64,000 nucleotides of DNA from Coriobacteriales bacterium (GCA_030529665.1 JAUMWL010000002.1:3986-67985); one strand, 5' to 3'. Positions 27,152 to 51,648 are shown, numbered from the stretch's first letter. Translations and numbers: made by a program. Notes: a model not told the origin generated them from the sequence alone.

Positions 27152-27168
27152 GCATGAGTGATGAGGCC

Positions 27169-28824
27169 CTAGTTGTCATCCGCGAAGAGGGCGTCGAGCT
27201 CCTCCTGTAGGCTCTGCAAGTCGAGGTCGTCGTGCGCAAGCGGTCCCTGAGGCTGTTCGTCTCCGTCGGGCCTGGCGCGCACCTCTTCTTCTGGGGTCTC
27301 GAGGGCGTCGTCTGCGGCGTCTTCCTTGGCGAGGATGGTGTCTATCATGTCGTCGAGGAGCCTCTCGGCGCCGATGTCCCACGGGCGTCCAGCGCACTCG
27401 TCCGCGTCGTGGAGGTCGAGCATCCGCTCAACCACGTCATCGCGACTGACCCTCGCCTTTCGTGGAGCGGGTGCGGCATGGAGGTCGAGGTGACGACCAT
27501 ACGCCTCAAGCGGTTCCATATGCGTGCCGACCATTGGCTTGCCGGCGACGCACACGTACGCGTCGCCCGGTCCCAGGCGCAGCATATGGCCTACGTCTAT
27601 TGCCCCTCCGCTCTTGAACTCAGCGTCACTTGCGATCTCATGAGAGATGTTGGACATATAAATGTTAACGGCAGCCTGTTCCAGAACCACGTTTGCCTCG
27701 GCGCGGGTGTAGAGGCCGCGTTCTAGGAATTGTGAGAAGGACTGCAGCGTGAGATACGCCGTGCAGTTTCGGCTGCGACCGGTGGCCATCAGGGCCAGTA
27801 TCTGCTCGCAGCGGGGTAGGCGCGCGAATTCGTCCACGATAAAGCACAGCCCGAACAGGTCCGTTCCTTCGAGATTGCGCCGTTCGAACTCGTCCATGTA
27901 CGATGCTGTCGCGTACTCGATCAGGTGGACGGTGTAGTTGCTGCACAGTTGGTTGTTGTCCGGGGAGATTACGTAGATGCAGGTGGGCCAACCGCTTCTG
28001 AAGAAGTCGGTCCTAAAGTCGATGTTCGAAGAAGCGGCCACGTGGCGTCCCGTGCTGGTGGCGTAGAAACCGAGCATGGCGCTTACCACGCTCTTGACGC
28101 ACGACCACGTGGTCTTTGCGTGTGTGAGGTCGAAGGAATCGAGTATGGCTTTAGGTGTCTCGTCGCCGAGGTGATCCGCGAGCCAACGCAGCTTGTTCTC
28201 GTCGTGAATGGCATCGCAGACGTCGGCGAGGGAGGGCTCCTCGTCCTCTGTCAGGCAGAGTGCCATGGAAACTGCCGAGATGAGATTCCACGAAACGGTT
28301 TCCCAGTAGGAATCCTTCTCGCTGTGGACCGAGGCGATCGTGGCGGCCTTGATCTTCGAGAGGGATGCCTCGGCCAGCGCGACATCACCCGTTTCCTTGA
28401 TGATTCTAAAAGCCTCGGTGAGCGGGCTCCAGCGTCCCTCACTCTTCGAGGACATGAGGTCGACGACCTTGACCTCGTAACCTTGGGACTTGAGGTACGG
28501 TGCGGTCTCGCGCCACATGGTGCGCTTGCTATCCACGATTACCATGGACTTTGGGTGCTCGCCCTTGCCGCGTCGGGTCCCGTTGACGATAACGGTGGGT
28601 TCGAGGCAGGAGCGCGTCTTGCCTGCGCCGGTGCGACCGACGACTACGGCGTGCTTCCCGGGAGGGGTACACCACGTGACGGACGAGGGACCGCCTCCGC
28701 AGACGAGGCCGGACGCCTTGCCGCCTTTGATGTCGTCCAGGGTATAGGGGACGAGGCCGGCGCTGTGTGGGTTGCTGGTCACGGTTTTCTTCGAGACCGC
28801 CTCTGCGTAACTGACAATCTGCAT
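27169..28824 (-). CDS. TraG/TraD/VirD4-family (type IV coupling protein-like) P-loop ATPase without TM segments
   Basis: Walker A is VVVGRTGAGKTRS and Walker B is LCFIVDEFARLP. This is followed by ALMATGRSRNCTAYLTLQSFSQ, as in T4CP/TraG-D_C modules. No N-terminal hydrophobic helices are visible. The ATG at 28824 is separated by 1 nt from the stop of the upstream gene. Confidence 0.75.
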   Translation of the reverse strand: MQIVSYAEAVSKKTVTSNPHSAGLVPYTLDDIKGGKASGLVCGGGPSSVTWCTPPGKHAVVVGRTGAGKTRSCLEPTVIVNGTRRGKGEHPKSMVIVDSKRTMWRETAPYLKSQGYEVKVVDLMSSKSEGRWSPLTEAFRIIKETGDVALAEASLSKIKAATIASVHSEKDSYWETVSWNLISAVSMALCLTEDEEPSLADVCDAIHDENKLRWLADHLGDETPKAILDSFDLTHAKTTWSCVKSVVSAMLGFYATSTGRHVAASSNIDFRTDFFRSGWPTCIYVISPDNNQLCSNYTVHLIEYATASYMDEFERRNLEGTDLFGLCFIVDEFARLPRCEQILALMATGRSRNCTAYLTLQSFSQFLERGLYTRAEANVVLEQAAVNIYMSNISHEIASDAEFKSGGAIDVGHMLRLGPGDAYVCVAGKPMVGTHMEPLEAYGRHLDLHAAPAPRKARVSRDDVVERMLDLHDADECAGRPWDIGAERLLDDMIDTILAKEDAADDALETPEEEVRARPDGDEQPQGPLAHDDLDLQSLQEELDALFADDN

Positions 28825-28825
28825 G

Positions 28826-29236
28826 TTAGTCTCCTTTCCGCTTGGCAGGTGATTGGGCAGGAAGCTCGCTGAACCCCGCTATCGCGAGGGCCTTCGCGAG
28901 CTCGGCCTTGCGCTCGGAAGACGCGGCGACCGCCACGGTGAGCTCGGGGCAGTCGAGGGCATCGCGCAGGTTGAGGCAGGCGAAGAGCGCATCGTCAGTG
29001 CAGGAGACTCCGAGTAGGCTTACCACGACGACGCCGTGGAAGCACTCGAGTGACAGTGCGTTGAGGCGCGTCGTCAGCGTGGCGGGGTTGTCGTTGACCC
29101 GATAGGGGAGGACGAGCAGGTTGTCTATGTCGTACTTGTCGAGTGCCTGGATGGTCTTCATGAGGGCGTCTACCGAGGTCACGCCCTCGTAGGCGAGTCC
29201 ATAGTTCGTTCCGTGGGATAGCTGCTGGTTGTCCAT
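28826..29236 (-). CDS. Hypothetical alpha/beta protein, first gene of the minus-strand operon
   Basis: The ORF is trimmed to ATG 29236 (MDNQQLSHG...), preceded by GGAAAGGAA. Alternating hydrophobic strands (LLVLPY, VVVVSLLG, LTVAVAAS) suggest a Rossmann-like fold. The stop TAA at 28828-28826 abuts the T4CP-like start. Confidence 0.5.
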   Translation of the reverse strand: MDNQQLSHGTNYGLAYEGVTSVDALMKTIQALDKYDIDNLLVLPYRVNDNPATLTTRLNALSLECFHGVVVVSLLGVSCTDDALFACLNLRDALDCPELTVAVAASSERKAELAKALAIAGFSELPAQSPAKRKGD

Positions 29237-29760
29237 TGACCGTTCCTTTCCTTCGCTGGATGCCTGGCTCATGGATGAATAATCATGGGAAAGGTTGTGT
29301 TTGTTGTTCAGTCATCTGTAACACCAGGTGACTGTGCGATGAACTGGTATTCGGTTTTCAAGGTTCTTCGTAGATGCTGTCTTGATTATGGGCTTCGCAC
29401 TTCGTGGCGTTTGCGCATTGAGTGCGTAGGTGGTGGCGTACCGGTCACATGATTAGTGCCCCGTCGCATCAGCTTCGGCTTTTCTAGGTCTTATGTAAGG
29501 CACGGCCATGTTGCATTGGGGTTGATATCCTCCTCTGCCTTACAGATATGTGCGCGGAGGAGGTGTCCATGCGCCATCAAACGCGTTTTCGAAGTGTCGA
29601 GAATCTTGCCTTGCACAGGGGTTCGACTGTAATGCGCAATCCCCGCAGTTTGAGGCGGGTAGCATCTTCAGCAAGATCAGAGCGCCTCGTTTGGGGACAA
29701 ATGATCGGAAATGGCCGCAGCCAATCAGGGTGACTGCGCATGACAGAAAGGGAGAGAGTG
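29237..29760. promoter_or_regulatory. Divergent intergenic control region between the two operons of the kinase/vWA supercluster
   Basis: This is about 520 nt without a convincing gene, noticeably more AT-rich than the flanks, and it separates oppositely oriented operons. It contains a strong SD (GGAGGAGG, 29557-29564) 5 nt upstream of an ATG at 29569. That ATG opens a 54-codon Arg-rich ORF ending at 29733. Confidence 0.45.
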
Positions 29761-30429
29761 ATGGCGATTGAGTTTCCTAGGGGCGGATTTGACAACGAGC
29801 TTCCCACCGGTGCGAAGAAGCTGCCCTGCGCGCTGCTCGTCGATACGTCGGGTTCGATGGGGGCTTACGAGGACGACCTTAAGGTGGGTGTTAAATCTCT
29901 GATCGATGCATTGCAGGGCGACTTTGCGACCGCCGCCGTGGTGGAGGTCATGCTCGTCTTCTTCGACGACAGCGCTCGTATCGTCCACCCCTTCACGAAC
30001 GTGCGCTCCCTCGAGGTCCCCGAAATCGAGACTGGCGGCACCACGCACATCTTCGAGGCCCTCGACCTGGCCTACTCGGAGATTCGAGTGCGCCAGGAGC
30101 AGTATAAGAAGTCTGGCATCAACAGCTATGCGCCGTTCATCGTAGTCCTCACCGACGGGCATCCCGTGGGTGACACCGACATGGGCATTGTGTCCGCGAT
30201 TCGCAAGCGCAACGAGGACAAGAAGCTCGTGCCCTACCCCTTCGCCATGGGCGGCGAGGCGGACGAGGCGCTCCTCAAGAGCCTGCGCAACGACGGGATG
30301 GCGTTCCGTGTCGACATGGAGAACCTCAAGGATATCTTCGAGTTCGTGAGCGTCTCCCTGTCCAGCATTGCAAGCGACGTGACGAGCGTGACGAACGACC
30401 AGCTCCCGGCGACGATTTCGATTATCTAG
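29761..30429 (+). CDS. TerY-type von Willebrand factor A (vWA) domain protein
   Basis: The MIDAS motif is LLVDTSGSM (DxSxS). Downstream are GGTTHIFEAL and FIVVLTDGHP, as in TerY-like vWA proteins. The start is set at ATG 29761 after AAGGGAGAGAG; an alternative ATG lies at 29740. Confidence 0.85.
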   Translation: MAIEFPRGGFDNELPTGAKKLPCALLVDTSGSMGAYEDDLKVGVKSLIDALQGDFATAAVVEVMLVFFDDSARIVHPFTNVRSLEVPEIETGGTTHIFEALDLAYSEIRVRQEQYKKSGINSYAPFIVVLTDGHPVGDTDMGIVSAIRKRNEDKKLVPYPFAMGGEADEALLKSLRNDGMAFRVDMENLKDIFEFVSVSLSSIASDVTSVTNDQLPATISII

Positions 30430-30515
30430 GAAAAGGGATTGGTCCACTCTGGTGCCGGCGTGTCCGATCCGTGTTGGTACCGTTTTGACCACGAAGTGAT
30501 AGGAGGTGGGATAAA

Positions 30516-31748
30516 GTGCTCTGCGAGTTCAGCGTAACCCAAAAGGGCGAGAGCCATATAAAGCATGACCTGCCCTGCCAGGACCACAGCGACTCGTTCG
30601 CCGTACCCGCTACGGGCGAGCCCAAGTACGTCGCCGCGATCGTGGCCGACGGCGTGGGAAGTGAGGAGTACAGCGACAAGGGGTCGAAGAGCGCTGTTGA
30701 CGTCGTGTCGAAGTGCCTGAAAGGGCGGCTTGCCAGTACTGAGTCGCACGACCACATGCTGGATGTCATCGAGGACGCCTTCGAGGAGGCGTTGGATGCC
30801 GCGCTGGATATGGCTGATGACATGCAGGAGCCCTTCACTAAGTTTGCCACGACTCTCACGGTCGCCGTATTCGACGGCCGGACGCTTTGGTACGGGCATG
30901 CGGGGGATGACGGCATCGTAGCCATGCGGCGTGACGGCACGTATGGGATGGTGACCGAGCGGCACGAGGGTGATCTGGCAAACAGCGTCGTCCCGTTCGG
31001 ATCTCGGCGTTGGCAATTCGGCGAGGAGGCAGACGTAGCTTCCTGCGTGCTGATGACCGACGGCATCTTGGATTACTGCGTCAAGGACCAGCTCGAGGGA
31101 AACCGGGTAAAGCTTCCGTTCCTCAAGCCCCTACTCTATGCGGTGCTGGAGACGGTTGATGAGGTGCAGACGGCACGGGCGGATTGGGACGAGTTCCTGA
31201 TGGCATCGAGGGACGAGGGCCAGGCAGACGGAGACACCGTAGTACGGACGGTGTTCCGAGACCTCGTGAGGGACGATCTTTCAATAGCGCTGCTCTCCAA
31301 CCCCGAGGCGGTCGCAAACCTGCCGGCGTACTCTTTCGACCTTGATGCTTGGAATGCGGACTCGGACTATTACGAGGCCGCACGCGAGGAAGGCCTGGCG
31401 GAGTTGGACCGGGTTCGGCTCGAGGAGGATTCCGAGTATCGTGAGCGGGTTCGGCTCGGGAAGGAACGCCATCCTCGTCAGGGCAGGCAACTGCGCTCGT
31501 CCTCGATGGAGGGCGTGGCGCCAGCTACCGATGCGAAGCACGATTCCGCTATGCCAGTTCCGCTAGGAGTTCCTGCAAAACGCGAGGCGCAGGCAAGGGA
31601 AGCGAGTGCGCCTTGCTCCTTGGGTGACCAGGGAGGTGGCGAGTGGCCTCAGGTGTTAGCCGACGGCGCATGCGTCGTCGTCAGAGGAATCGGCATCATC
31701 GGCGACGCGATCGAGGATGCGGTGCAGGAGATGTTCAAGAAGACGTAA
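30516..31748 (+). CDS. PP2C-family Ser/Thr phosphatase with a C-terminal extension
   Basis: PP2C landmarks are PCQDHSD, AAIVADGVGSEEYSDKGS, WYGHAGDDGIV and VLMTDGILDY. The GTG start at 30516 is preceded by AGGAGGTGG. Confidence 0.8.
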   Translation: MLCEFSVTQKGESHIKHDLPCQDHSDSFAVPATGEPKYVAAIVADGVGSEEYSDKGSKSAVDVVSKCLKGRLASTESHDHMLDVIEDAFEEALDAALDMADDMQEPFTKFATTLTVAVFDGRTLWYGHAGDDGIVAMRRDGTYGMVTERHEGDLANSVVPFGSRRWQFGEEADVASCVLMTDGILDYCVKDQLEGNRVKLPFLKPLLYAVLETVDEVQTARADWDEFLMASRDEGQADGDTVVRTVFRDLVRDDLSIALLSNPEAVANLPAYSFDLDAWNADSDYYEAAREEGLAELDRVRLEEDSEYRERVRLGKERHPRQGRQLRSSSMEGVAPATDAKHDSAMPVPLGVPAKREAQAREASAPCSLGDQGGGEWPQVLADGACVVVRGIGIIGDAIEDAVQEMFKKT

Positions 31749-31827
31749 GCCCTTAGAAACGGCCGGCGTCGTGGCGCTTCGACCCGCTCCGCTTCTTTGT
31801 TGGCATGTTGATGACAGGAGGTTTGTT

Positions 31828-33279
31828 GTGGTTACCTATTTTGGCGAGAATGGAGCTTCCGCGAATGGTCGGGGCGTCACGTACGTTCTGGGCGACCAAA
31901 TCAAGCACGGCACCGAGGGAACGGTGTACAGCATCGAGGGAAATCCCGGTATGGTCGCCAAGGTGTATGCGCAGAAGCGCTACGACGAGGTATCGGATCG
32001 ACGACAGGGGCGTCCCGACGGGCGCGCATTCATGCATGCCAAGCTGCGTGAGATGGTTCGTCAAGGAAAGTCCGTGAACTCCCAGCAATGGTCCTCAGTC
32101 CATGGTCACAGCTTCCTCGCTTGGCCTGCCGACACGCTTGTGGACGCGAACGGACGCTTCTGCGGATATGTGATGCCGCGCGTGAAGGGAAAGGGCAACC
32201 TCTACGCCGCAATAGACGAGGGAGCACACGACGGCTTCTTCGGCCCGGGAAACTACACCTGGAGAACCGCAATCAAGATTGCGAAGCAGCTGGCGTATGT
32301 GGTCGGAAAGCTCCACGACGCCGGAATCGTGGTAGGCGACTTCAACCCGCAGAACTTCCTGATTGACAGCAACGGTTTCGTCTCCTTCTGTGACACCGAC
32401 TCGTACACCATCTCGCCGAAATACAAGACCTTTGTGGCCTTTCCCGGCTATGTGGCCCCCGAACTGCAGGGAAAACCCTGGTCGATGACGAGGCCGGACT
32501 GCCAGTTCACGAAAGAGAGCGACGTGTTCAGCCTCTCCTGCCTCATATTTCAGCTGCTTACCGGCAAACACCCGTTCAACGGAATCGTGATGAGGAGCGG
32601 AATGAACTCCGTCTCTCAATCGAGCGAGGAGCGAAACATCACCAACGGGGACTGCCCGTACGTCCATCATGGCATAGCGGTGCGACAGCCAGATGCTCCG
32701 GACGTGTACGGCCTGCTTTTTCCGCCCGAGCTGCGCGACCTATGCAACAGGTGCTTTGACTACACGGTGAAAGACGCTAGGAACCCGAAAACGATAAGCC
32801 GACGTCCGACCGCAGCGGACTGGTACTTCGCGCTCGATGCCCTTAGTGAAACGGGCTACTCCGGAAACAGGCTCACTTGCTGCAAAAGCAATGCGCAGCA
32901 TTACTACCTTCCTGGCGCTGGCATAAGCAGAAGCAGTCGGTGCCCTTGGTGCGAGCGTGACGAGCATTTCGCGAGCGCGAGCGCCGCGTTTCGCTCTGGC
33001 GCGGACGGAGGTGGTATCGCACCAAACACTGCCACCTCAGTGATCTCGTCTCCGAACATGGTAAGCGCGAAGAATGCGGGTGGCCCTGTAGTCCAGAAGC
33101 CCAATGCGAACACGCAGACGACTCAGGGCTACGGACTTACCCCCAATGCAGCCAAGTTCTGCAAGACCGCGCTTAAGTGGGCTGCGTGTGCTGCTGTCGT
33201 TGTTACGTTGATCGCGCTCGTCCTCAACGTGTGGCCGATAATCCCTATCGCTCTCATTTTGGCATGCTTGCGAAAATGA
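31828..33279 (+). CDS. Atypical protein kinase with a C-terminal zinc ribbon and TM anchor (kinase of the TerY-P-type triad)
   Basis: Motifs are GTEGTVY (G-loop-like), MVAKVY (beta3 Lys), LHDAGIVVGDFNPQNFLI (D...N catalytic loop without HRD), FCDTDSY (DFG replaced by DTD) and YVAPEL (APE). These are followed by CCKSN...CPWC and a hydrophobic C-terminus (AACAAVVVTLIALVLNVWPIIPIALILACL). The GTG start at 31828 follows AGGAGG by 7 nt. Confidence 0.8.
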   Translation: MVTYFGENGASANGRGVTYVLGDQIKHGTEGTVYSIEGNPGMVAKVYAQKRYDEVSDRRQGRPDGRAFMHAKLREMVRQGKSVNSQQWSSVHGHSFLAWPADTLVDANGRFCGYVMPRVKGKGNLYAAIDEGAHDGFFGPGNYTWRTAIKIAKQLAYVVGKLHDAGIVVGDFNPQNFLIDSNGFVSFCDTDSYTISPKYKTFVAFPGYVAPELQGKPWSMTRPDCQFTKESDVFSLSCLIFQLLTGKHPFNGIVMRSGMNSVSQSSEERNITNGDCPYVHHGIAVRQPDAPDVYGLLFPPELRDLCNRCFDYTVKDARNPKTISRRPTAADWYFALDALSETGYSGNRLTCCKSNAQHYYLPGAGISRSSRCPWCERDEHFASASAAFRSGADGGGIAPNTATSVISSPNMVSAKNAGGPVVQKPNANTQTTQGYGLTPNAAKFCKTALKWAACAAVVVTLIALVLNVWPIIPIALILACLRK

Positions 33280-36813: not shown

Positions 36814-36840
36814 GGGTGCTCGCGTGCAACGCGAGCACCC
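36814..36840 (+). terminator. Perfect hairpin downstream of the ChW gene
   Basis: GGGTGCTCGCG-TGCAA-CGCGAGCACCC forms an 11-bp perfect stem 42 nt after the stop. No U-tract follows. Confidence 0.5.
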
Positions 36841-37033: not shown

Positions 37034-39730
37034 GTGTGTACCTGCCTGCATTGTGAGTCAAACATCGTCGAGGAAAGCGTCTTCTGTCCGTTCTGCGGGG
37101 AGCCGACCGGCCTTTGCCCAGAGCGGAGCGACTACGAATACGAGGCATTCATAAGCTATCGCCACCTCCCGCTCAGCTCAAAGGTCGCCAGACGCATGCA
37201 GCACGACATCGAGGGATTCCGCATACCCAGGGAGCTGCGCGGCGAGGATGGAAAGGTGCGGCTGGGCAGGCTCTTCCGCGACGAGGACGAGCTGCCCGCG
37301 TCCACGTCCCTGAGCGACCAAATCCGAGAGGCGCTCGCCCGCTCCAGGTTCCTCATAGTCGTCTGCACGCCGGAGACGAGGGAAAGCAGATGGGTGGAGC
37401 GCGAGATCGAGCTGTTCGCCTCCCTGCACGGTCGCGACAACATCCTGGTCGCCCTCGCAGAAGGGGAGCGTTCGAAGTGCCTGCCAGACGTGCTGCTGTA
37501 CCGCAAGGTCGTGACGGCGAATGGCTCGGTTGTCTCTGAGCCTACGGAGCCGCTTGCGGCTGACTTCCGTGTCTCGTCCCGCAAGAGCCGCTGCGACGAG
37601 ACCCTGCGCATTGTCGCGGCGCTCCTTGGCTGTGGATTCGACGACCTGCGGCAGCGCGAGCGTGCGAGGAGAAACGCGTTTGCTGCGAAGGTTGCCATTG
37701 GTGTGACGCTGGCGATTACGGCGTTCCTCGGGACGGCGCTCCACCAGCAGGGACGGATCATCGGGCAGAAGCAGCAGATCATCGACCAGCAGGAGGAGCT
37801 GCTCGGGAAGGAGCGAGAGCTGCAGGTCAACCAGTCGCGTTACCTCGCGAAGGAAGCCGACGAGCTTCTGGCTCAGGGAGACCGGACGCAGGCGGTGCAG
37901 GTCGCCTTGGCCGCCCTCCCTCAGAGCTCTACGAGCGCCGACAGGCCCTACGTCCCAGAGGCGAGGGCCGCGCTCGAGCGGGCGGTTCGGACGTTTCCCA
38001 CGGAGGACGGGTGGTACCCCTCGTTCTCGCGTGGCGAGGGGGCTGTCGTCGACGTGGCGACGTGCGACTCGCTCGGAAGATATGCCGTCCTGGACTCCAT
38101 GGGAAGGCTGAGGGTCTACTCGATAGACGACGGGAAAGTCATGGACGACATAGATCTCGCAGACGTGCTCGGGGACGACATTTCTCCGAGTGGTGCCGAG
38201 GCATGGATGCTTGATAACGGCGCGGTCGTCGTACGCAAGGACAACGAGGTCCTCTGCGTAGGTCAGGGACAAGCCGAGGGTGACAGCGGCATCGCATGGT
38301 CCTTCGACTGCGACGCGGATGGCTTGTACGTCAATTGTGTCGACGTGTCCGAGGACGGCTCGGCAATCGCCCTTTCCGGATCGTCGACGGAATGGGCCGA
38401 CGACCCCGACTTCATAGAAAAGGCATGGATAAAGCTTCTCGATCCCCGCACGGGAGAGGTCACGGGTTCTTTTGATCTGGCAGAAGGGCAGGACGTATCC
38501 AACGCAGAGGCGATCCGCCTCGATCGGACCGGAGGGTGGGCCTTCGTCGCGTTCGGACAGGATGCCTACATCATTGACGTCGAGTCCAAGGCCGTAGCCA
38601 AAGCAAAGCTCGCGAATCCCGGCTGTGAGGGAGTAACCTGGACCGGGAACAGGGTCGTTGTGGCAACGCAGGACTTCTCTCAGCCATCTCCCGTTCCATA
38701 CGCCATACAGTGCTTTGACACCAAGGGCACTGAGGTGTGGCGGACGGAGGGAGGGATTTCGCCTATGTCCTCAAACGGTGTCGCATACGACGGGACAGCA
38801 GGCCTGTGGGCGCGGCTAAAGGGACTCGGCGACCACGGCGAGTGCCTGGTTGCCTCTTTGGGCGGGCGCCTGGTGACGCTGGACCTTCAGGACGGTTCAC
38901 AGCAGGCTGTTGCCACCATTGACTCGCCCATCGTTGCATGCCAAGTGCTCGACGAAGGGGACTGTCAGAGGCTCAACGTATGCTTGGCCTCTGGGACGCT
39001 CATGTATTTGACCTCGGATGAGGATGGAGTGGCCTCGGGTAGCTCAATTGACGCGAGCGTGGGAAACGTAAAGCATGCCTCGTTCCTGCGGACTAACGAT
39101 GTGACATATCTTGTGGCGAAATCCTCACTCGACGAGAGTGGCAACGACAAGGTGTCCGTATGGGAGCTAAGTTCTACGGGACACCTTCGAGAGGGAGCAG
39201 ACGACGGCAGCGCCTGGTCGAGACCAGCTGATGGCCCCGAGATTGAGGAGAGCCTTACAAAGACCGTCGCTCGCCTCAAGGACGTGAGGCTCGCTATGCA
39301 AGTTCCAGAGTCGACTTCGGCAGTTGTGCAATCTGAAGGTCATCTCTTGCTCATCGATACCGAGACTGGCGACACTCTAGCAAGGTCTTTGGGCGTATAC
39401 GAGGAAGCTCATGGTTGCGGCTTCGCGGAAGATGGCAAGACTTTCTATGTTCAGGTTCCCATAGTGGACGACTACAAGGGGCGTTCCTGCCTATACGTGT
39501 TCGACCTCACATGCGGTACCCTCGCTCCTCAAAGCGTCATCCCGTTCGGCGTTATGGTTTCAGAGGACGGAGGAAAGGTCCTTTTGGACGATGGCAGCAC
39601 GTTGCGTGCGCCAACATGGGTTATGGACTACCCCACGCTTGACGAGCTCCTGGAACGAGGACGGGAGCTGTGCCAGGGATTCGAGCTGTCTCCCGACGAG
39701 AGGGAGGCCCTCTTCGTCGAGGCCACCTAG
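37034..39730 (+). CDS. Zn-ribbon - TIR - single TM - coiled coil - beta-propeller protein
   Basis: The N-terminal zinc ribbon is CLHC...CPFC. The TIR signature is YEAFISYRH...LFRDEDELP...SRFLIVVCTPETRESRWVEREIELF, with a candidate catalytic Glu in WVERE. One TM helix (FAAKVAIGVTLAITAFLGTAL) is preceded by RQRERARRN, which by the positive-inside rule places the TIR in the cytoplasm. Then comes a Gln/Glu-rich coiled coil and about 550 aa of blade-like repeats (GRLRVYSIDDGKV, LLDPRTGEV, CFDTKGTEVW, GGRLVTLDLQDGS). The GTG start at 37034 follows AGGAAGAG. Confidence 0.8.
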   Translation: MCTCLHCESNIVEESVFCPFCGEPTGLCPERSDYEYEAFISYRHLPLSSKVARRMQHDIEGFRIPRELRGEDGKVRLGRLFRDEDELPASTSLSDQIREALARSRFLIVVCTPETRESRWVEREIELFASLHGRDNILVALAEGERSKCLPDVLLYRKVVTANGSVVSEPTEPLAADFRVSSRKSRCDETLRIVAALLGCGFDDLRQRERARRNAFAAKVAIGVTLAITAFLGTALHQQGRIIGQKQQIIDQQEELLGKERELQVNQSRYLAKEADELLAQGDRTQAVQVALAALPQSSTSADRPYVPEARAALERAVRTFPTEDGWYPSFSRGEGAVVDVATCDSLGRYAVLDSMGRLRVYSIDDGKVMDDIDLADVLGDDISPSGAEAWMLDNGAVVVRKDNEVLCVGQGQAEGDSGIAWSFDCDADGLYVNCVDVSEDGSAIALSGSSTEWADDPDFIEKAWIKLLDPRTGEVTGSFDLAEGQDVSNAEAIRLDRTGGWAFVAFGQDAYIIDVESKAVAKAKLANPGCEGVTWTGNRVVVATQDFSQPSPVPYAIQCFDTKGTEVWRTEGGISPMSSNGVAYDGTAGLWARLKGLGDHGECLVASLGGRLVTLDLQDGSQQAVATIDSPIVACQVLDEGDCQRLNVCLASGTLMYLTSDEDGVASGSSIDASVGNVKHASFLRTNDVTYLVAKSSLDESGNDKVSVWELSSTGHLREGADDGSAWSRPADGPEIEESLTKTVARLKDVRLAMQVPESTSAVVQSEGHLLLIDTETGDTLARSLGVYEEAHGCGFAEDGKTFYVQVPIVDDYKGRSCLYVFDLTCGTLAPQSVIPFGVMVSEDGGKVLLDDGSTLRAPTWVMDYPTLDELLERGRELCQGFELSPDEREALFVEAT

Positions 39731-39762
39731 ACGACATGAGGAGCTTCATCGTATCCAGGTAG

Positions 39763-39933
39763 ACCACCGCCAAGGCCAAGAGCTTCTTCACCGTAAACAA
39801 GACGAGTGGCAAGGTGACCGTGAAAGGCATGCCAAAGAACATGTACCAGTTCCAGATCAAGAGCACCGCGAGTGCGGGCGCCAACCACAACGCTGGGTCC
39901 AAGACGGTGACGGTCACGATCGTCGTCAAGTAG
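39763..39933 (+). pseudogene. Orphan 3' fragment of a cell-surface Ig-like-repeat protein gene
   Basis: The 56-codon frame has no start codon and an in-frame TAG immediately upstream. It reads ...KSFFTVNKTSGKVTVKGMPKNMYQFQIKSTASAGANHNAGSKTVTVTIVVK-stop. That matches the stereotyped last repeat of Gram-positive surface proteins. Confidence 0.5.
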
Positions 39934-40064
39934 CACCATCGGGAGTCGAGCCACGGCGAGACAAAATAGAGTGTCGCCGTCCAGAGCGTGCTCGGGCGAC
40001 GGCGCTCGCAGGCGGCGTGTTGTGGAGTCCGTACCTCGCGTGGTATAGTCCATCACGTCTTGGA

Positions 40065-40787
40065 ATGATGTCAGGTGGGTGTTCGGCTATGTACGACGGT
40101 ACCCTCGATGGTCTTATGGAGCTTGCGCTCGACAACGACGGGCTGCTCACGACTGCGGAAGACAGTCCTTTCAACGATCCTGTTTTCGGGTTCCTCTTCC
40201 GCATTGCGTGGGCACTGTTCGGGCTTGGCGGCTCGATTGCGAGCAGGCTGGGCCTGCACGGTTTTGACTGGTCACTGTTCTTTGCGGGGCTGGTGGCGGT
40301 AGGTACCCTCTTCATCGTCTACGTCGCCTTCAGGGCGACTCGCATGCTCCTCGGTCGCGATGTCGAGTTCGAGTACTGGAAGTATCTGAGGACGTGCGAA
40401 GCATGCCATGTTGAGCCGAGCACCTCCTCGTTCGCGTTTCGCCCCCAGAAGTCGTTTCTCGTCATCGTGCTGTCGCGATTGCGCCCCTTAGCCTTTGCTT
40501 TCGTGGCGCTACTCCTGTTTCTTGCGCTATCCAAGTTCGCTGTTGCGATGGCCCCCAACACGGTCTTCGGTAGCGATCCTTTGGGTAGCCACGCGCGGTA
40601 TCTTGCCGACTTTGCGTTGACGCTCATTCTCCAGATTGCCATACGATTGTTGGTGGTCGTTCTCGTAATGTGGGTGTCATACGTCGTGTTTCGACGAATC
40701 GTGTCGGCACTGTCGAGGACGGCCCTATACGCCACAATCGAACGCCGTATGTCAAAAGGCCGCGCAAAGGTGGTGCGGAACCGATGA
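40065..40787 (+). CDS. Polytopic (about 4 TM) membrane protein, translationally coupled to the downstream STAND NTPase
   Basis: Four hydrophobic segments are FGFLFRIAWALFGLGG, SLFFAGLVAVGTLFIVYVAF, LAFAFVALLLFLALSKFAV and LILQIAIRLLVVVLVMWVSYVVF. The start is uncertain: ATG 40065/40068, or ATG 40089 preceded by AGGTGGG. Its TGA (40785-40787) overlaps the next gene's ATG (40784-40786). The N-terminal 158 codons of ORF 39591-40787 are judged non-coding. Confidence 0.6.
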   Translation: MMSGGCSAMYDGTLDGLMELALDNDGLLTTAEDSPFNDPVFGFLFRIAWALFGLGGSIASRLGLHGFDWSLFFAGLVAVGTLFIVYVAFRATRMLLGRDVEFEYWKYLRTCEACHVEPSTSSFAFRPQKSFLVIVLSRLRPLAFAFVALLLFLALSKFAVAMAPNTVFGSDPLGSHARYLADFALTLILQIAIRLLVVVLVMWVSYVVFRRIVSALSRTALYATIERRMSKGRAKVVRNR

Positions 40788-43700
40788 GGCGGAAGACCTT
40801 CAGGCTGTTTGTAAGCTCCACATTCCTCGACTTCGTAAATGAGAGGTCCATTATTAACGAGCGACTGTCCACACGGCTGGAGTCATACTGCGAGCGCTAC
40901 GGGTACGGCTTTGAGGTGGTGGACCTTCGTTGGGGAATCGGAGAGATCGCATCGGAGAATCAACTGACGCTCGACATATGCCTGAATGAAATCGCGCGAT
41001 GCAAGCTCTATGCCCCACGACCGCACTTCCTTTTGATGCTTGGTGGAAGGTACGGTTCCATACCGTTGCCCACCGAGCTGGCGCCGAACGCATACGAGAC
41101 GATTGTCTCGACGTTGGAGGCAGAAGAAAGCAGTCTTGTCCGACATTGGTACGAGTTCGACGACAACTGCTTGGGCGGGACGTACAGGCTCAAGCCACGG
41201 AAGGGTAGGTTCAGGGACTATTCCGACTGGTCAGGCGTTAAGCGTGGGCTCCTCACGGCAATCGGTTCGGCAATTGACGCGAATCCGGCAATGGCATCCG
41301 ATGGCCTTACGCTCGCCTCGATGACCGAGCATGAGTTCAATGCGGCGCTACTGAAGCACGACATGTGCGAAGGCTCCGTGGTGGTGCTGCGGGAAGGCGG
41401 GGAGAACGAGGAGAAGGCGCACGAGCTGAGAAAGCGCGCTGCGGAACTCATGAACTCAAAGGGGCTTGCCGATAGAGTGGTCGAACTCCGCCAAGGGGAA
41501 CCCGGATATGAGCAGAGTTTCGAAGACGAGGTGTTCCGCCTGCTGACGCAGCTCGTCGACTCGGAGGTAAGAGCGTCCGCTCGTGATGATGCCGACACGA
41601 TCCTTCCTTCACGCGAGACGAGCCGGGTTTTCGTGGGAAGGGAGCACGAGATTGGGCTCCTGCGCGAATATGCGTCCTCATCGAGCCGGTCCGTCCTATG
41701 GGTTCATGGACCCTCGGGGAGCGGCAAGACCTCGCTGCTCCAACGATTCGTGGACGAGTATCCCCATCGCAAGGCGTTCGTGTCCTACGGCAGGTCTGAA
41801 GACACGTTCACCATGGGTGGCGCGGTTCGCGAGATCCGACGCCAACTCGCGGATGGAAACGGTGCCGAAGTCGTGCCTTACGTCGATGGCTCGAACCTTC
41901 CCGAGGCACTTTTGAGCGAGCTGTCCGCGAAGGCCAACGAGCATGCCCCTCTGCTCGTCGTCATCGACGGTCTCGAGAGCTTGATGAACAATGGGGACGT
42001 GAATGAAAACGTCTTGCCCTCCACACTGCCTGCGGGGGCGAAACTCGTCGTCTCTTGGGCGCATGAGGACGCCCGTCCTTTCGCATTGCCCTTTGCGGGC
42101 CAAGAGCTCGTGCTGGGGGCACTCTCAGACGAAGAGGCGCTTCTTGCCGTCGATGCCCGCCTCGCGTTGGGCGGACGACGCGTTGCGCCCGATAATCAGA
42201 GAGAGGCCATACGCGACTCATTCCGTGTCGCCGCTACCCCCTTGCAGGCCACATTGATATCAAATATCGTGTCGCGCTGGTCGTCGGGATTCCGGGACAC
42301 CGAGCTTCCCCTGACTCCAAGGGAAGCAGCGCTGGCATATATCGATGGCGCGTTCCTGCTTCTGGGGCACGGGCGTGAACTCGTTCTGCATTCAATGGCG
42401 CTGGTTTGCGTCGCCCCTTTCGGGATTTCCGAGCGGGAGATCCTTGACGTCCTCCAATCTATTGGGGGGGTGCGGGAGGAGTTTCTGGGGCAGGATAGAT
42501 ACGGGCACTCCGGTGATAAGCTGCCATTCGTGGTGTGGTCCCGGCTATATTACGATTTGCGGGAGTGCCTTGAGACCGTGCTCTTCAAGGGCGTGCCCGT
42601 GGTGAGGTTTGTCCACAGCATATTCAAAGATGCCGTGCATTCAGCCCATGAACCATACTGCAAGAGGGCGGTAGAGGCCCTGCTGCGATACTACTCCTCG
42701 CGACCGGCGCATGTGGACGCTCCATGGACTGCGCCGGACACGATGCGAGCGGCGAATCTACCGGCGCTCCTGGGAACGGCGGGAAGAGACGACGAGCTTG
42801 CGGAATTGCTCTGCGCAAGCGAAGAGCTCGATGCCGTGCTCCAAATCGGCGATTACGAGCGCGCGCTGGACGCGCTGGCACGACTTGGCGGGCGACCGGA
42901 CGGCCTGCTTCGGGAAGACGTCGTTGCAATGTCTTGGTACCTGAGAGCGCATAGGGGGACTCTCTCCTGCTTTCCAAGGTCTCTACCTGCCGCCATGTCA
43001 CATGAGCTGGGCGTCGACAGAAGGAGCAGGCTCGGCCGCGGAGCGAATGGTTTGGCGGATTCGAGTGGGTCCCTCATTCCCGTGCCGCACCCGCCGAACT
43101 CGGGGATCGCCTTGTCCTTGGACGGCGACGAGATTGCGATTTGGCACGGCCCTTGGGTATACGTGTACGGACCGGGACTGACCGCAAACTGTCGGATTTA
43201 CAACACTGCAGATTCCGGAGCGGGACTCGTGATCACCTCCCTGTGCTGGCTTGCCGGCAGCGAGCTGGCGGTTGGGCTTTCAGACGGGAGGATTGTGACC
43301 TATGACGTACACGTGCCGCCTCCCTCGCTGGTCGTGAGTGTCGCCTTGGAATCCCCCGAGTACCTGAGTTATTCGTCCTGTCTTGATGTGGTGGTTGCCT
43401 CAACAAAGAGCTCGCTGGTTGCAATTGACGCTCATCGGACGGACGTCAGGCTCCTAGCCGAATTGCGGGAAGAGAGCTCGTGGTGCATGTCAGCCGACGG
43501 GCTTGCCGTTCACGTGCGCGACCGCCGCAGCGTGAGGTCGATAGCAATAGTGGATGGCACCACGATTACGGAGCGAAGGGTGCATGCTGATGGACACCTC
43601 GTGGGAGAGCTCCCGGACGGTAGACTTCTGCTCGACGGTTATTCCATCATCGACGCGCACGGGACCGCGGTTTATTTCAAGGTTCCTCGGCAGGCGGAGA

Positions 43701-45010
43701 TTGTGTCCTCGCTTCTGTCGCGTGACGTCCTGGCATGCACGTATCCAGACGGGGTTTTTGTCATCCGGCCTGCCGTGGAGACCGCTGGACACTGGATTTC
43801 GGTACCGCATACGGGAACGTCCTCGTTGTCTGCCACCGGGGATACGCTTGCGGCCTTGTCGGATTACGGCCTCGCAATTCGTTCGACAGCGCACGAGACG
43901 ATGGAGAAGCTGCGAGCAATCCCCGTCTTCGTGAGCCGTCGTCCCATCGACTACGAGCGAGGGATGCTCTCCTTGTTGCCACGGCTGGTGGCATCATTCG
44001 TCAGGATGGACATCGCGCTTCATACGGCTCGTAGCTGGGCAAATCTGCGCCTCAATGCTCTCGGGGAGGCCGTAAAGCGCTGGGGAATCGGTGCGCTACG
44101 CGATGGTGGCGCGGTGCCAGGCATCGGCAGGGCGACTCTTGTCGTACAGTCTGTGGCCGGGTGGACTGCCGTGGCCTACGAGTTCTCCGACACGGTTGCC
44201 CTGTATGACTTAGGGTGGAGCGAGCGCATGCGAGTGGATCGGCTGAGATTTAGCGCGTTTGACCCTCTGTTGGGCATGGACCTGTCTGCGGATGGCGGGC
44301 TTCTCCTGATTTGCCGACCGTCATCGGTCACCGTCTATCGCACGCATGATGCAAGCCGAGCGCTCGAGATCAACCTCACGGGTGGTACGCTCGTGTCGGC
44401 GGCATTGGAGGAGGGTGGAATAGTTGAACTGTATGGACTTAGCGGAACGACTCGGCGATTCCAGGTTGGGAATCGACCAAAGCGTTGCGAGGTGGTCGAT
44501 TGGCCAACATATCCACGAGACGACGTAGCTGCGACCGTGCTCTACCCCACCGCTTCCGGAGCAGAATGCGTGGTCGTCAAGGCCCGCAAGGGCATAACGA
44601 CCACTACCTACGACACGTCTTACTATTGCGGGAAGAATCATAGCTTGCTCTACTGTGACGGAGCCTTTTTCCTCGATGGCGACAAGTCAAAACCCTTCCT
44701 ATCGTCGGAATACGATTTCGGCCAGTGCCTACGGGAGGAGCGTCAAAAAGAGCCCGACGACTTGATTCGGTTCATTAGGGAGAAGAACGATTTGACGAGT
44801 AGCCTTTATGACCTCGACGAACGTTTTCTGCTACTCGTCTGCAAGAGGCTCTCGTCGGTAATCCTGTTCGACATCGACTCTCTGTCGGTTGCCGATGCCT
44901 ACAGGACCCAAGATGAAATAATAGGCTCCCGCTTTGATGCCGACGCAAGCGAGGTACTTTTGTTCAGTAACTCATCACCACACATTTCAAGACTGAGATT
45001 GACGATCTAG
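40784..45010 (+). CDS. DUF4062 (TIR-like) - NACHT/STAND NTPase - beta-propeller-like repeat protein
   Basis: The N-terminus is FRLFVSSTFLDFVNERSIINERL...GYGFEVVDLRWGI (DUF4062 signature). Walker A is LWVHGPSGSGKTSLLQRF and Walker B is PLLVVIDGLESL. The C-terminal ~650 aa has WD40-like blade motifs (e.g. ITSLCWLAGSELAVGLSDGRIVTYDV). The start is ATG 40784 (MRRKTFRLF). Confidence 0.8.
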   Translation: MRRKTFRLFVSSTFLDFVNERSIINERLSTRLESYCERYGYGFEVVDLRWGIGEIASENQLTLDICLNEIARCKLYAPRPHFLLMLGGRYGSIPLPTELAPNAYETIVSTLEAEESSLVRHWYEFDDNCLGGTYRLKPRKGRFRDYSDWSGVKRGLLTAIGSAIDANPAMASDGLTLASMTEHEFNAALLKHDMCEGSVVVLREGGENEEKAHELRKRAAELMNSKGLADRVVELRQGEPGYEQSFEDEVFRLLTQLVDSEVRASARDDADTILPSRETSRVFVGREHEIGLLREYASSSSRSVLWVHGPSGSGKTSLLQRFVDEYPHRKAFVSYGRSEDTFTMGGAVREIRRQLADGNGAEVVPYVDGSNLPEALLSELSAKANEHAPLLVVIDGLESLMNNGDVNENVLPSTLPAGAKLVVSWAHEDARPFALPFAGQELVLGALSDEEALLAVDARLALGGRRVAPDNQREAIRDSFRVAATPLQATLISNIVSRWSSGFRDTELPLTPREAALAYIDGAFLLLGHGRELVLHSMALVCVAPFGISEREILDVLQSIGGVREEFLGQDRYGHSGDKLPFVVWSRLYYDLRECLETVLFKGVPVVRFVHSIFKDAVHSAHEPYCKRAVEALLRYYSSRPAHVDAPWTAPDTMRAANLPALLGTAGRDDELAELLCASEELDAVLQIGDYERALDALARLGGRPDGLLREDVVAMSWYLRAHRGTLSCFPRSLPAAMSHELGVDRRSRLGRGANGLADSSGSLIPVPHPPNSGIALSLDGDEIAIWHGPWVYVYGPGLTANCRIYNTADSGAGLVITSLCWLAGSELAVGLSDGRIVTYDVHVPPPSLVVSVALESPEYLSYSSCLDVVVASTKSSLVAIDAHRTDVRLLAELREESSWCMSADGLAVHVRDRRSVRSIAIVDGTTITERRVHADGHLVGELPDGRLLLDGYSIIDAHGTAVYFKVPRQAEIVSSLLSRDVLACTYPDGVFVIRPAVETAGHWISVPHTGTSSLSATGDTLAALSDYGLAIRSTAHETMEKLRAIPVFVSRRPIDYERGMLSLLPRLVASFVRMDIALHTARSWANLRLNALGEAVKRWGIGALRDGGAVPGIGRATLVVQSVAGWTAVAYEFSDTVALYDLGWSERMRVDRLRFSAFDPLLGMDLSADGGLLLICRPSSVTVYRTHDASRALEINLTGGTLVSAALEEGGIVELYGLSGTTRRFQVGNRPKRCEVVDWPTYPRDDVAATVLYPTASGAECVVVKARKGITTTTYDTSYYCGKNHSLLYCDGAFFLDGDKSKPFLSSEYDFGQCLREERQKEPDDLIRFIREKNDLTSSLYDLDERFLLLVCKRLSSVILFDIDSLSVADAYRTQDEIIGSRFDADASEVLLFSNSSPHISRLRLTI

Positions 45011-47654: not shown

Positions 47655-48542
47655 TCAAGACCGTGTGTTGCACTTACCAAGGGTGTCCTCGAAGGTGCGA
47701 AAGGTGTGCTTGTCGTGAGTGCGGTCGAGCACCGCGAACACAGCGATTAATGGTGCACTGCTGGTGTTCTGCACCTCCATGAGGGCCTCGCGGAAAGCTC
47801 GGGCAACGAGATGAGGGCTGTTTCCAAAAGCGCCGCAGCCCCAAGCGCCTAGCACTAGAGCACGGTAGCCATTGCTGGTGGCGAACAACAGCATTCCAGC
47901 AATTCGTGCCTTAATCGTCGCAAAAAGCTCCGTTTCCGTTATGGAATCGAGCTCAGGGACGAACGGTGCGGCACATGTGAGAACCGCAATCTCACGAGGT
48001 GTTCCCAGGTATTCGTAGTCTGAGTTGCGAAAGACCTCCACGTACGGTGATATCATCATCGCGTGGGAGAACAAGTAGGTGCCCGACTCCTTGTTCGTTC
48101 TATAAAATGCTTGAGCTTCATCGGATGTGAGCGAGGCGTAAACGGTTGTCCTACGACAAAGATCCTCCTCTTGGACAATGGACCCGTGCATTTTTCCGCC
48201 CCCTGGTTCGTAAGGGTTGGCGAAGTTTAGCACAAGCGGTGGCCTGTGTTCCTTCGTATAACGGTCCGTGATGCTCTTTGCGAGTTCCGCGCCCTCAAGT
48301 GAGTCTACGTTTTTGACAACGACTGCGGTCTCGCCAGTTACCGTTGAGTTTGAATCGGGTACTTGTCCATCAGCCGTTCGGGCGATTTCAGCGGGGGTAG
48401 CCACTATTGCGGACTGATGCATCTCTGGAGACTGACTAAACGTTACTTGATTACACGCATCGACATACATGTTTGCCTCTATGTCTGCCTGCGTCTGGAA
48501 GAAAACACTTCTGAGTCGTTCAACCGTTCTCGAGTCCATCAA
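47655..48542 (-). CDS. Bacterial PARG-type macrodomain protein (TIGR02452/DUF2263-like)
   Basis: The PARG signature GGG-x7-QEE is present (LNFANPYEPGGGKMHGSIVQEEDLCRRT), and GAWGCGAFGN lies near the C-terminus. The start is TTG 48542 or ATG 48539, just downstream of the radical-SAM gene stop at 48549. Confidence 0.75.
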   Translation of the reverse strand: MMDSRTVERLRSVFFQTQADIEANMYVDACNQVTFSQSPEMHQSAIVATPAEIARTADGQVPDSNSTVTGETAVVVKNVDSLEGAELAKSITDRYTKEHRPPLVLNFANPYEPGGGKMHGSIVQEEDLCRRTTVYASLTSDEAQAFYRTNKESGTYLFSHAMMISPYVEVFRNSDYEYLGTPREIAVLTCAAPFVPELDSITETELFATIKARIAGMLLFATSNGYRALVLGAWGCGAFGNSPHLVARAFREALMEVQNTSSAPLIAVFAVLDRTHDKHTFRTFEDTLGKCNTRS

Positions 48543-48548
48543 AGGGGG

Positions 48549-49586: not shown

Positions 49587-49605
49587 TTCTCCTTATGACA
49601 CGTAG

Positions 49606-50466: not shown

Positions 50467-50527
50467 AACTTACAGACTCCTTTCCTTGCTCTTATCGTCG
50501 AGCCGGATTTGTTGGCATTTCGGGATA

Positions 50528-51646: not shown

Positions 51647-51648
51647 GA

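Follow-up and report, generated by a model that had tools for sequence, protein, structure and literature searches.

A predicted membrane-spanning TIR-propeller protein family of gut bacteria and its RyR-domain neighbours

The bacterial TIR systems described in the literature that we found recognise phage components inside the cytoplasm. TIR signalling was surveyed systematically in 2025; the survey lists 29 putative types, of which types I-XI are validated, and excludes stand-alone TIR proteins; the accessible parts of its text and supplements mention no RyR (ryanodine receptor), kinase, PP2C, WD40, PQQ, propeller or DHH component. Here we analyse a gene at 37034..39730 (+ strand) of a 64,000-nucleotide stretch of Coriobacteriales DNA (GCA_030529665.1 JAUMWL010000002.1:3986-67985), which at its full length is called the window. 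The gene encodes an 898-aa protein with a TIR domain, a predicted transmembrane (TM) helix and tandem beta-propellers. A preliminary description of the locus knew of no characterised example of such a protein, and the survey and our literature search (full text, with subscription journals mostly not covered) agree in describing none. The same search returned no host RyR effector.

The layout of an inner output domain and an outer sensor is familiar from receptor Ser/Thr kinases. PknD of M. tuberculosis, with a six-bladed propeller, and PknB/Stk1, with PASTA domains, have a cytoplasmic N-terminal kinase, one TM helix and an extracytoplasmic C-terminal sensor. The TIR domain of Toll-like receptors (TLRs) is a scaffold without the catalytic-type Glu, and TIR enzymes adopt a multimeric arrangement with a composite active site. 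The Dictyostelium protein TirC is an active TIR of bacterial origin whose single-helix membrane tether is proposed to restrain its activity (PMC13142454). According to two 2026 preprints, RyR domains bind or cleave the cyclic ADP-ribose (cADPR) isomers of Thoeris TIRs, 2'cADPR and 3'cADPR, through ligand residues His and Trp that are three apart (H75/W78 for RyDEP, H129/W132 for RyR Tad) (PMC13232231; bioRxiv 10.64898/2026.06.04.730250).

Architecture and predicted topology

The reading frame is uninterrupted over 898 codons, and its GTG start codon lies 7 nt downstream of AGGAAGAG. NCBI holds an identical protein, named 'TIR domain-containing protein', from a 68-kb contig of a Coriobacteriales metagenome-assembled genome (MAG). 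The AlphaFold2 (AF2) model, for which a homologue alignment was the input, has a predicted local distance difference test score (pLDDT) of 91.5 and a predicted template modelling score (pTM) of 0.73. The open reading frame (ORF) is confirmed as real, with the architecture first described and three corrections, to the catalytic motif, the number of propellers and the standing of the protein as an oddity. Since the full architecture is found again in hundreds of diverged proteins, its features lie far beyond chance. They are as follows.

37034..39730, + strand: whole gene for a Zn-ribbon-TIR-TM-stalk-tandem beta-propeller protein of 898 aa (ORF and translation, identical NCBI protein P0001, AF2 model)
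37034..37108, + strand: N-terminal Cys4 zinc ribbon, aa 1-25, with C4, C7, C18 and C21 (Cys conservation, PF13240 in homologues, pLDDT 94-96)
37130..37633, + strand: TIR domain, aa 33-200, with FISYRH, FRDEDEL and S118-x-W120-x3-E124 motifs (Pfam, PDB profile matches, invariant residues)
37403..37405, + strand: GAG codon of E124, the TIR catalytic-type Glu
37634..37675, + strand: Arg-rich juxtamembrane motif GFDDLRQRERARRN, aa 201-214 (65% mean pairwise identity)
37676..37741, + strand: single predicted TM helix, aa 215-236 (Kyte-Doolittle score, position in the family, flank charge, pLDDT)
37742..37879, + strand: Gln/Glu-rich stalk helix, aa 237-282, predicted outside (AF2 helix 237-280, sequence)
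37880..37993, + strand: helical cap before the propellers, aa 283-320, GDRxQAxQVALAALP...RPxVPEA..AL (conservation)
38009..39631, + strand: highly divergent tandem beta-propellers, aa 326-866 (DSSP of the AF2 model, Foldseek, Pfam)

The ribbon has the spacing C4-x2-C7 ... C18-x2-C21, and each Cys is kept in 82-83 of 87 aligned homologues, which bears out the CxxC...CxxC ribbon that had been described. Many homologues match PF13240 in Pfam; the 898-aa protein itself does not reach E < 0.01 for this model. Both TIR_2 (PF13676; 31.1 bits, cut-off 28) and PQQ_2 exceed their Pfam cut-offs, and ThsB_TIR (PF08937; 30.4 bits, cut-off 21.2) is among the best Pfam matches of the protein. A PDB search with the single TIR sequence gives only E 0.07-1.3, and a family profile is needed for clear matches. 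The profile of aa 30-214 matches almost exclusively TIR domains, those of TLR1, TLR2 and TLR6 included, and together with the two Pfam models it upholds the TIR assignment.

W120 and E124 are invariant in all 87 homologues, as are the FISYRH and FRDxDEL motifs, and the position of E122 is occupied by A, Q, E or L. The conserved Trp-x-Glu that had been proposed is therefore wrong, and the invariant Glu is that of W120-x3-E124. In the PDB alignments E124 corresponds to the Glu four residues past the conserved Trp (WxxxE) in Roq1 and TcpB. By this comparison the TIR carries an intact catalytic-type motif, WxxxE as in plant TIRs and TcpB, and it is probably enzymatically active. The Pfam matches of the protein include no NTPase and no leucine-rich repeat (LRR), and the interval between the TIR and the repeats consists of the TM helix plus helices. 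Neither NCBIfam nor PADLOC has a specific model for a TIR-TM-propeller family, and a full-length Foldseek search is swamped by propeller matches and silent on the TIR.

Residues 215-236 are the sole hydrophobic segment of the protein (19-residue Kyte-Doolittle maximum 1.86) and have RQRERARRN on their N-terminal side, just as the single hydrophobic helix with an Arg-rich flank had been described. With a score >1.6 as the criterion, 103 homologues among the first 120 and 83 among the 92 that follow have exactly one segment, near residue 215. Eight of the first 120 are just below the threshold (1.33-1.59) at the same position, many family members reach 2.5-3.4, and among 212 family proteins with 300 aa or more, only 2 do not have one hydrophobic segment at this position. 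The 15 flanking residues hold 6.05 +/- 1.05 Lys and Arg on the N side versus 1.57 +/- 0.91 on the C side (206 proteins), and the N flank has more of them in 99.5% of these proteins. The juxtamembrane segment (GxxDLRQRxRxRR) is the best-conserved part of the protein, with D203, L205, R208 and R212 invariant or nearly so, whereas the hydrophobic segment is 36% identical among homologues against 55-65% for the regions that flank it. A position that is kept while the sequence drifts, beside a conserved juxtamembrane motif, is what one expects when a helix faces lipid and a functional motif lies beside it in the cytoplasm.

The AF2 model has pLDDT <50 only within 222-239 (222-233 and 235-239) and leaves the segment unpacked against either globular part, and thus does not give the buried helix that the preliminary description had named as an alternative. 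From flank charge, fixed position and the model, an N-in/C-out topology with the propellers on the cell-wall side is very likely, as had first been proposed from the Arg-rich flank. Another protein of the window begins in the same way. It has 955 aa (57186..60053, + strand), with an N-terminal Zn ribbon, the sequence RRGQSAFRRN and one TM helix at aa 40-58, and continues with an FTP propeptide motif and a thermolysin (Peptidase_M4_C) domain. This Zn-ribbon/Arg-rich/TM start on a known secreted enzyme type is an internal control for the topology.

In the AF2 model, one unbroken helix at 237-280 forms a 44-residue stalk. Hydrophobic pairs recur in it at 7-residue spacing (I242/I243, I249/I250, L256/L257, L263/V265, Y270/L271 and L278/L279), and this periodicity in a long Gln/Glu-rich helix fits the coiled coil that had been suggested. 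DSSP counts about 52 strands at aa 326-865 of the model, which amount to about 13 blades; the number is approximate because it derives from this strand count. The best Foldseek matches (probability 1.0) are the tandem double WD40 propellers of AIP1 (1.4e-16), beta'-COP, Apaf-1 and Utp21, and Pfam finds a PQQ_2/BamB-like match at aa 558-782 that is barely over its cut-off (28.8 bits, cut-off 27.6). The blade-like repeats of the preliminary description are thus a WD40/PQQ-type fold, and its one propeller becomes two in tandem.

A large family and its RyR and DHH neighbours

The protein, which had been framed as an oddity, is a member of a very large family. A word-indexed search returns 339 homologues in length classes of about 735, 890 and 1100 aa, with Atopobiaceae, Eggerthellaceae, Adlercreutzia and Thermophilibacter among their sources. 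An exhaustive HMMER search with aa 1-320 returns 2,235 representatives of 50% identity clusters at E<=1e-30, and the alignment spans the TIR, TM, stalk and cap in most of the best 150 matches. GTDB, with one genome per species, contains 359 loci in Coriobacteriia and Clostridia, the latter including Lachnospiraceae, Butyrivibrio, Blautia and Oscillospiraceae, and several genomes have 2-3 paralogues. Distant members match TIR_2 plus WD40/PQQ-type propeller models in 45 of 45 cases. This is a large, uncharacterised family of Gram-positive gut bacteria. A phage origin was considered and rejected because the 2.9 million viral contigs of IMG/VR contain no family member.

Mean pairwise identity is 55% in the TIR, 65% in the juxtamembrane segment and 57% in the helical cap, which is retained in Firmicutes members, versus about 20% in the propellers (19% and 22% for the two halves). 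The combination of a conserved output module, a fast-diverging input module and paralogue expansion is the pattern of a receptor family.

For the comparison of gene neighbourhoods, ORFs were called in 89 loci plus the window (the loci compared here and below are labelled L001-L097), and a family member is present in 85 of these 90 sequences. Neighbour proteins were clustered, and clusters that recur near the family gene were counted; the non-redundant set comprises 81 loci. Two neighbour clusters stand out, one of RyR-domain proteins and the other of a DHH/DHHA1 phosphoesterase.

The proteins of the first cluster have about 480-560 aa and a C-terminal RyR domain (29-47 bits in Pfam, cut-off 27.4) whose identity is also supported by PDB searches. 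A hidden Markov model (HMM) of the shared C-terminal region finds RyR-like proteins in 26 loci. Such a protein is encoded <=5 kb from the family gene in 23 of the 81 loci, in Coriobacteriia and Firmicutes both: 12 of 21 loci of the ~730-aa class, 6 of 28 of the ~1100-aa class, 3 of 26 of the ~1020-aa class and 2 of 6 of the ~890-aa class. The two genes are mostly <100 bp apart or overlapping, the RyR-like gene may be downstream, upstream or divergent, and the other flanks differ between species. Close spacing, variable orientation and unshared flanks favour functional linkage over inherited synteny. The RyR proteins have in common only their C-terminal ~175 aa; their N-terminal parts are kinase-like, an unrecognised ~400-aa region or multi-TM. 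All RyR-like neighbours contain an EHxRW motif, which corresponds to the His/Trp ligand residues of RyDEP and RyR Tad.

The ~1100-aa class has larger neighbours, of 740-975 aa, in L010 (4077-6590), L040 (11223-13433) and seven other loci. The L010 neighbour has several N-terminal hydrophobic helices, and a C-terminal EHDRW is present in those of L010, L032, L033 and L040. The L010 and L040 neighbours have no Pfam RyR match, and the RyR HMM reaches only E ~1e-3 (L032, L033 and L040). These multi-TM proteins may be membrane effectors whose RyR-like domain has diverged; the count of RyR-like proteins includes them with caution.

The phosphoesterase of the second cluster has ~503 aa, and its nearest solved relatives are exopolyphosphatase-related and NrnA proteins. 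It is encoded <=5 kb from the family gene in 17 of the 81 loci, of which 16 are among the 26 loci of the ~1020-aa, mostly Lachnospiraceae, class. In L064-L089 (Lachnospiraceae/Butyrivibrio) the DHH/DHHA1 gene lies directly beside the family gene in 17 loci and often overlaps it (for example L065 6471-7979), and its product has a ~200-aa C-terminal part without an assigned domain. These partners may degrade a signal or act as effectors. RyR and DHH partners are found together in none of the 81 loci. The RyR-domain proteins, as likely downstream partners, suggest that a signal is made and NAD+ not simply depleted, and for the family as a whole we lean moderately towards RyR-coupled signalling.

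The window itself contains a RyR-domain protein, in a module of three genes.

54300..55835, - strand: P0217, a protein kinase fold with a C-terminal RyR (Repeat12-type) domain, 511 aa, candidate downstream partner (Pfam, AF2, Foldseek)
55828..56655, - strand: PP2C phosphatase (PP2C_2, E 7.2e-10), directly upstream of the kinase-RyR gene and overlapping it
52722..54206, + strand: 494-aa protein with a weak, sub-cut-off C-terminal FHA match (E 0.0074), convergent

The RyR domain of P0217 scores 45.7 bits (Pfam cut-off 27.4), contains EHDRW and matches the Repeat12 structures of RyR1-3 with E 2.6e-18 to 1e-12 over a span that covers the motif region. The top 50 Foldseek matches of its AF2 model (pLDDT 86, pTM 0.83) are protein kinases throughout, among them Nek7 (2.9e-8) and M. 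tuberculosis PknB (1.6e-7). The Pfam Pkinase score is only 14.5 bits, under its cut-off; the kinase residues K45, E79, HRDLRCEN (H172-R-D174...N179) and D198, which represent the VAIK Lys, the alphaC Glu, HRDxxxxN and a DFG-like Asp, are invariant in 26 homologues. P0217 falls in a BLAST cluster of proteins that adjoin family members at other loci.

The pair of PP2C and kinase-RyR genes is also present in L090, L091, L092-95 and L097. Homologues of the 494-aa protein occupy the equivalent position in L091, L092 and L094 (blastp 1e-50 to 1e-104), and the L092 copy matches FHA with E 0.0019. The three-gene module repeats in L091, L092/93, L094/95 and L097, and L096 has a distant relative of the third gene (4e-19). 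The kinase-RyR module accompanies close relatives of the window gene in four of four cases. In L090, an 890-aa, 45%-identical TIR-TM-propeller gene sits between the PP2C and kinase-RyR genes. A 41%-identical relative has the module ~13 kb off on the same 36-kb contig, and the MAG with a 72%-identical relative has it on a separate contig. A reciprocal census of kinase-RyR loci in JGI metagenomes yielded one short, uninformative 6-kb locus.

Other TIR proteins accompany the module elsewhere. L092 (4011-5102) and L093 (4097-5188) encode a different TIR protein of 363 aa, with a TM helix flanked by RPRRKR and an ectodomain of ~185 aa (acidic linker/beta-rich), in an operon-like row with PP2C and kinase-RyR. 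As predicted from its sequence, it is a second, unrelated design with the TIR inside and a domain outside. In L094/95 the module is paired with a soluble TIR protein.

Proposed signalling route and competing explanations

The best reading of the locus, to which we give about an even chance, is a membrane-spanning ThsB-like sensor of a Thoeris-like pathway, oriented N-in/C-out, with RyR-domain proteins as its readers. A ligand or mechanical event at the propellers would alter the oligomeric packing of the stalk and TM helix, and the TIR domains would thereby assemble into a multimer with a composite active site. The assembled TIRs would turn cytoplasmic NAD+ into a cADPR-type nucleotide, and RyR-domain proteins would bind this nucleotide, switching on their variable N-terminal modules. 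In this genome the reader would be a protein kinase, with PP2C as the reset and the FHA-like protein as the reader of its output, and the outcome would be growth arrest or other protection against phage or other invaders. The events sensed by the ectodomain we can purely infer; phage adsorption, wall damage and competitors are plausible. It is a more tentative proposal, somewhat short of an even chance, that such single-pass TIR receptors form an undescribed class, widespread in Gram-positive gut bacteria, and convert outside events into a cytoplasmic NAD-derived messenger for RyR-domain proteins (kinases, membrane proteins and others).

Several points weigh against the Thoeris-like reading. 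The PADLOC-DB v2 models give only weak, sub-threshold matches to the protein (PDC-S66, 8.6e-4; ThsB1, 2.2e-3). Propellers of WD40 type that carry a similar helical cap are known chiefly from cytoplasmic STAND proteins. Cys content is the same on both sides of the hydrophobic segment (1.7% vs 1.7%), a lack of depletion outside that is neutral or uninformative for export because the organism is an anaerobe. Neither a RyR nor a DHH partner lies within the examined flanks in 41 of the 81 loci, and in most Lachnospiraceae loci the partner is the DHH/DHHA1 phosphoesterase rather than a RyR protein. The Thoeris-like adjacency is seen in the 23 family loci and L090; in the window, the TIR-TM-propeller gene and the module are on opposite strands, 14.5 kb apart. 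A gene for a 1087-aa TIR_2-NACHT/NPHP3_N-TPR protein (60285..63548, + strand; cytoplasmic, NLR-like) is only 4.4 kb from the module, and this nearer gene and the 14.5-kb gap make the pairing of the module with the propeller gene uncertain. Either or both of the window's TIR proteins may feed the kinase-RyR module, and RyR coupling of the window gene itself has slightly less than an even chance. Both RyR preprints treat phage anti-defence proteins, not host effectors (PMC13232231; bioRxiv 10.64898/2026.06.04.730250), and with this precedent the RyR protein could be a signal-removing regulator and not an effector.

The rival that survives best is a self-contained abortive-infection receptor, in which clustering at the surface would make the TIR an NAD+-depleting toxin with no messenger or partner. 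It would account for the lack of a conserved adjoining partner in the window and in the 41 loci, and for the invariant catalytic Glu. NAD+-depleting TIR filaments are established, the TIR effectors of CBASS, Pycsar, SPARTA and Avs provide models, and amoeba TirC is a TM-tethered TIR NADase (PMC13142454). We consider this explanation unlikely, however, since half of the loci, from two phyla, have a RyR or DHH partner that is usually in operon-like contact, all four close relatives are accompanied by the kinase-RyR module, and ThsB_TIR is among the best Pfam matches.

A general outside-in receptor without an immune role would sense wall fragments, host glycans or neighbour cells, and its NAD-derived messenger would drive the kinase/phosphatase/FHA circuit. 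The N-in/TM/C-out layout is that of PknB/PknD-type receptor kinases, and a partner set of kinase, PP2C and FHA is typical of actinobacterial signalling. The family is huge, with multiple paralogues per genome and some members in ordinary chromosomal settings, such as beside the SUF operon, and genes for surface proteins (ChW, LRR_5 and transglutaminase-like) are often nearby. What makes this reading rather unlikely is the setting, here and in close relatives, in an island resembling an integrative conjugative element (ICE) with TIR/STAND NTPases, GmrSD, toxin-antitoxin pairs and PARG, along with the immune-receptor pattern of extreme ectodomain divergence against a conserved effector. The bacterial TIR signalling characterised so far is also from defence (Thoeris literature).

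The RyR link might also be a matter of hitch-hiking, with the RyR proteins as anti-defence sponges or glycosidases of mobile elements that are unrelated or antagonistic to the TIR receptor. The sole characterised RyR domains of the prokaryotic world are indeed phage anti-Thoeris proteins, and both the window and its relatives resemble conjugative elements and have a coupling protein of a type IV secretion system (T4SS). We find this quite improbable in view of the size of the RyR proteins (480-840 aa) and their large variable N-terminal modules (kinase fold, multi-TM and others), the adjacency repeated with differing flanks in chromosomal loci of many species, and the absence of the family from the viral contigs. 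A tightly linked antagonist would moreover remain a functional partner, as a brake or reset.

The weakest rival, in which the segment is no membrane helix and the protein is a cytoplasmic TIR-WD40 sensor like TIR-STAND-WD40 proteins minus the NTPase, can draw on the modest hydrophobic maximum, a Lys within the segment, the eight homologues just under 1.6 and the undepleted ectodomain Cys, but it is extremely improbable given a hydrophobicity that is fixed in position despite sequence drift and far higher in many members, a nearly universal Arg-rich N flank and a segment that AF2 leaves unburied.

Surrounding island and relation to known systems

The immediate neighbours of 37034..39730 encode a ChW-repeat surface protein, a probable 4-TM protein and a DUF4062-STAND NTPase, none of which is conserved beside other family members. 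A strong hairpin at 36814..36840, an inverted repeat with a 12-bp stem (9 G-C pairs) and a 3-nt loop (GGGTGCTCGCGT / ACGCGAGCACCC), lies just after the ChW-repeat gene, is terminator-like on the minus strand and separates the ChW and TIR genes. In the ORF at 39591..40787 (+ strand) the first ~150 codons look non-coding, and the start is probably near 40065. The resulting ~240-aa product (~40065..40787, + strand), encoded directly downstream of the TIR gene, has about four hydrophobic helices and no Pfam match. Further downstream, 40670..45010 (+ strand) encodes a 1446-aa protein with DUF4062 (TIR-like) and a STAND NTPase (AAA_16/nSTAND1); the L091 contig also encodes a protein with DUF4062 and DUF1292. 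An adjacent conserved partner in the window was rejected because neither 39591..40787 nor the DUF4062-STAND gene has homologues near other family members.

More distant genes are of similar kinds. A cluster at 47655..52029 (- strand) encodes a microbial-type PARG (ADP-ribose glycohydrolase-like macro fold), two radical SAM proteins and a PqqD-like protein, and in L012 (10016-11089) a PARG_cat_microb gene lies 12 bp downstream of a family member. This neighbour hints at a link to ADP-ribose chemistry; it was not adopted as a partner, being adjacent in L012 only and 8 kb away in the window. At 29740..33279 (+ strand) there is a triad of vWA, PP2C and Ser-Thr kinase genes, the kinase with a C-terminal TM helix. 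Homologues of this kinase are found near family members in L002, L035, L036 and L059, and the L002/L091 contig has the full kinase-vWA-PP2C set. A protein kinase domain is joined to DUF285/BspA-type LRR_5 repeats in an 864-aa protein with no TM helix detected (15007..17601, - strand), and a second kinase-like gene lies opposite it (17827..18960, + strand). A T4SS coupling protein (TraG/VirD4-like), an AAA ATPase and small ORFs occupy 25937..29272 (- strand). T4SS coupling and AAA genes also flank relatives in L001, L090 and L091, and the region is therefore probably an ICE. With an RNase T-like exonuclease and the PARG and radical SAM cluster as further conflict-type content, it looks like a conjugative-element-like island packed with conflict-type genes.

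If the Thoeris-like reading is true, bacteria could raise a nucleotide alarm at their surface, either ahead of genome entry or without any dependence on it. Widespread receptors of this kind with RyR-domain readers would amount to a bacterial outside-in axis from TIR to cADPR to RyR, the first Thoeris-like immunity that senses the surface and a prokaryotic counterpart both of the TLR layout and of cADPR/ryanodine-receptor signalling. Through the RyR link, a domain that has so far been characterised only in animal calcium channels and phage counter-defence would gain a cellular role, and new kinds of effector come into view, such as a protein kinase gated by the signal and paired with a phosphatase of its own. 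Coriobacteriia and Clostridia of the human and ruminant gut, groups whose defence biology is barely explored, have the family in abundance.

Among known systems, Thoeris ThsB (types I-XI) shares with the window protein a TIR with a catalytic-type Glu, the ThsB_TIR match and the joining of a conserved TIR to a variable sensing part. The family gene, like that of Thoeris, is often beside a protein with a constant domain of a cADPR-isomer-binding type (RyR) and a variable other module, and Thoeris effectors are organised in this way, next to a TIR gene. In the literature that we found, however, ThsB proteins are soluble cytoplasmic sensors of phage proteins, whereas a membrane-spanning topology, with about 660 residues outside, is predicted for the window protein. 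RyR, kinase and DHH partners are also absent from the 29 surveyed types, and the window partner is not adjacent.

TLRs and IL-1 receptors are likewise single-pass, with a repeat or solenoid ectodomain and a cytoplasmic TIR. The window protein is reversed, with its N-terminal TIR inside, its C-terminus outside and no signal peptide; it has propellers in place of an LRR or Ig ectodomain, its family has an invariant catalytic-type Glu, and MyD88-type adaptors are absent here. The resemblance is one of layout by analogy and not orthology. PknD and PknB share the layout too, with a kinase where the window protein has a TIR output and tandem WD40/PQQ-like propellers.

TIR-STAND-WD40/TPR proteins (NLR-like, Avs-type) and Apaf-1, which is a top structural match, resemble the window protein in its N-terminal TIR and C-terminal tandem WD40-type propellers. 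Unlike the TIR-STAND proteins, the window protein has no NTPase; a TM helix and stalk take its place and would put sensor and effector in separate compartments. TirC differs in having an N-terminal anchor only, without an ectodomain, and in being eukaryotic. The partner proteins share with phage RyDEP and RyR Tad a RyR Repeat12-type domain with the EHxRW His/Trp motif. RyDEP and RyR Tad are small and act in anti-defence as sponges or glycosidases, whereas the partners are host- or ICE-encoded, 480-840 aa long and fused to other modules. Within TIR nucleotide signalling, a transmembrane sensor that is read out by RyR-domain proteins would be a new combination, and the RyR and DHH associations appear to be newly found.

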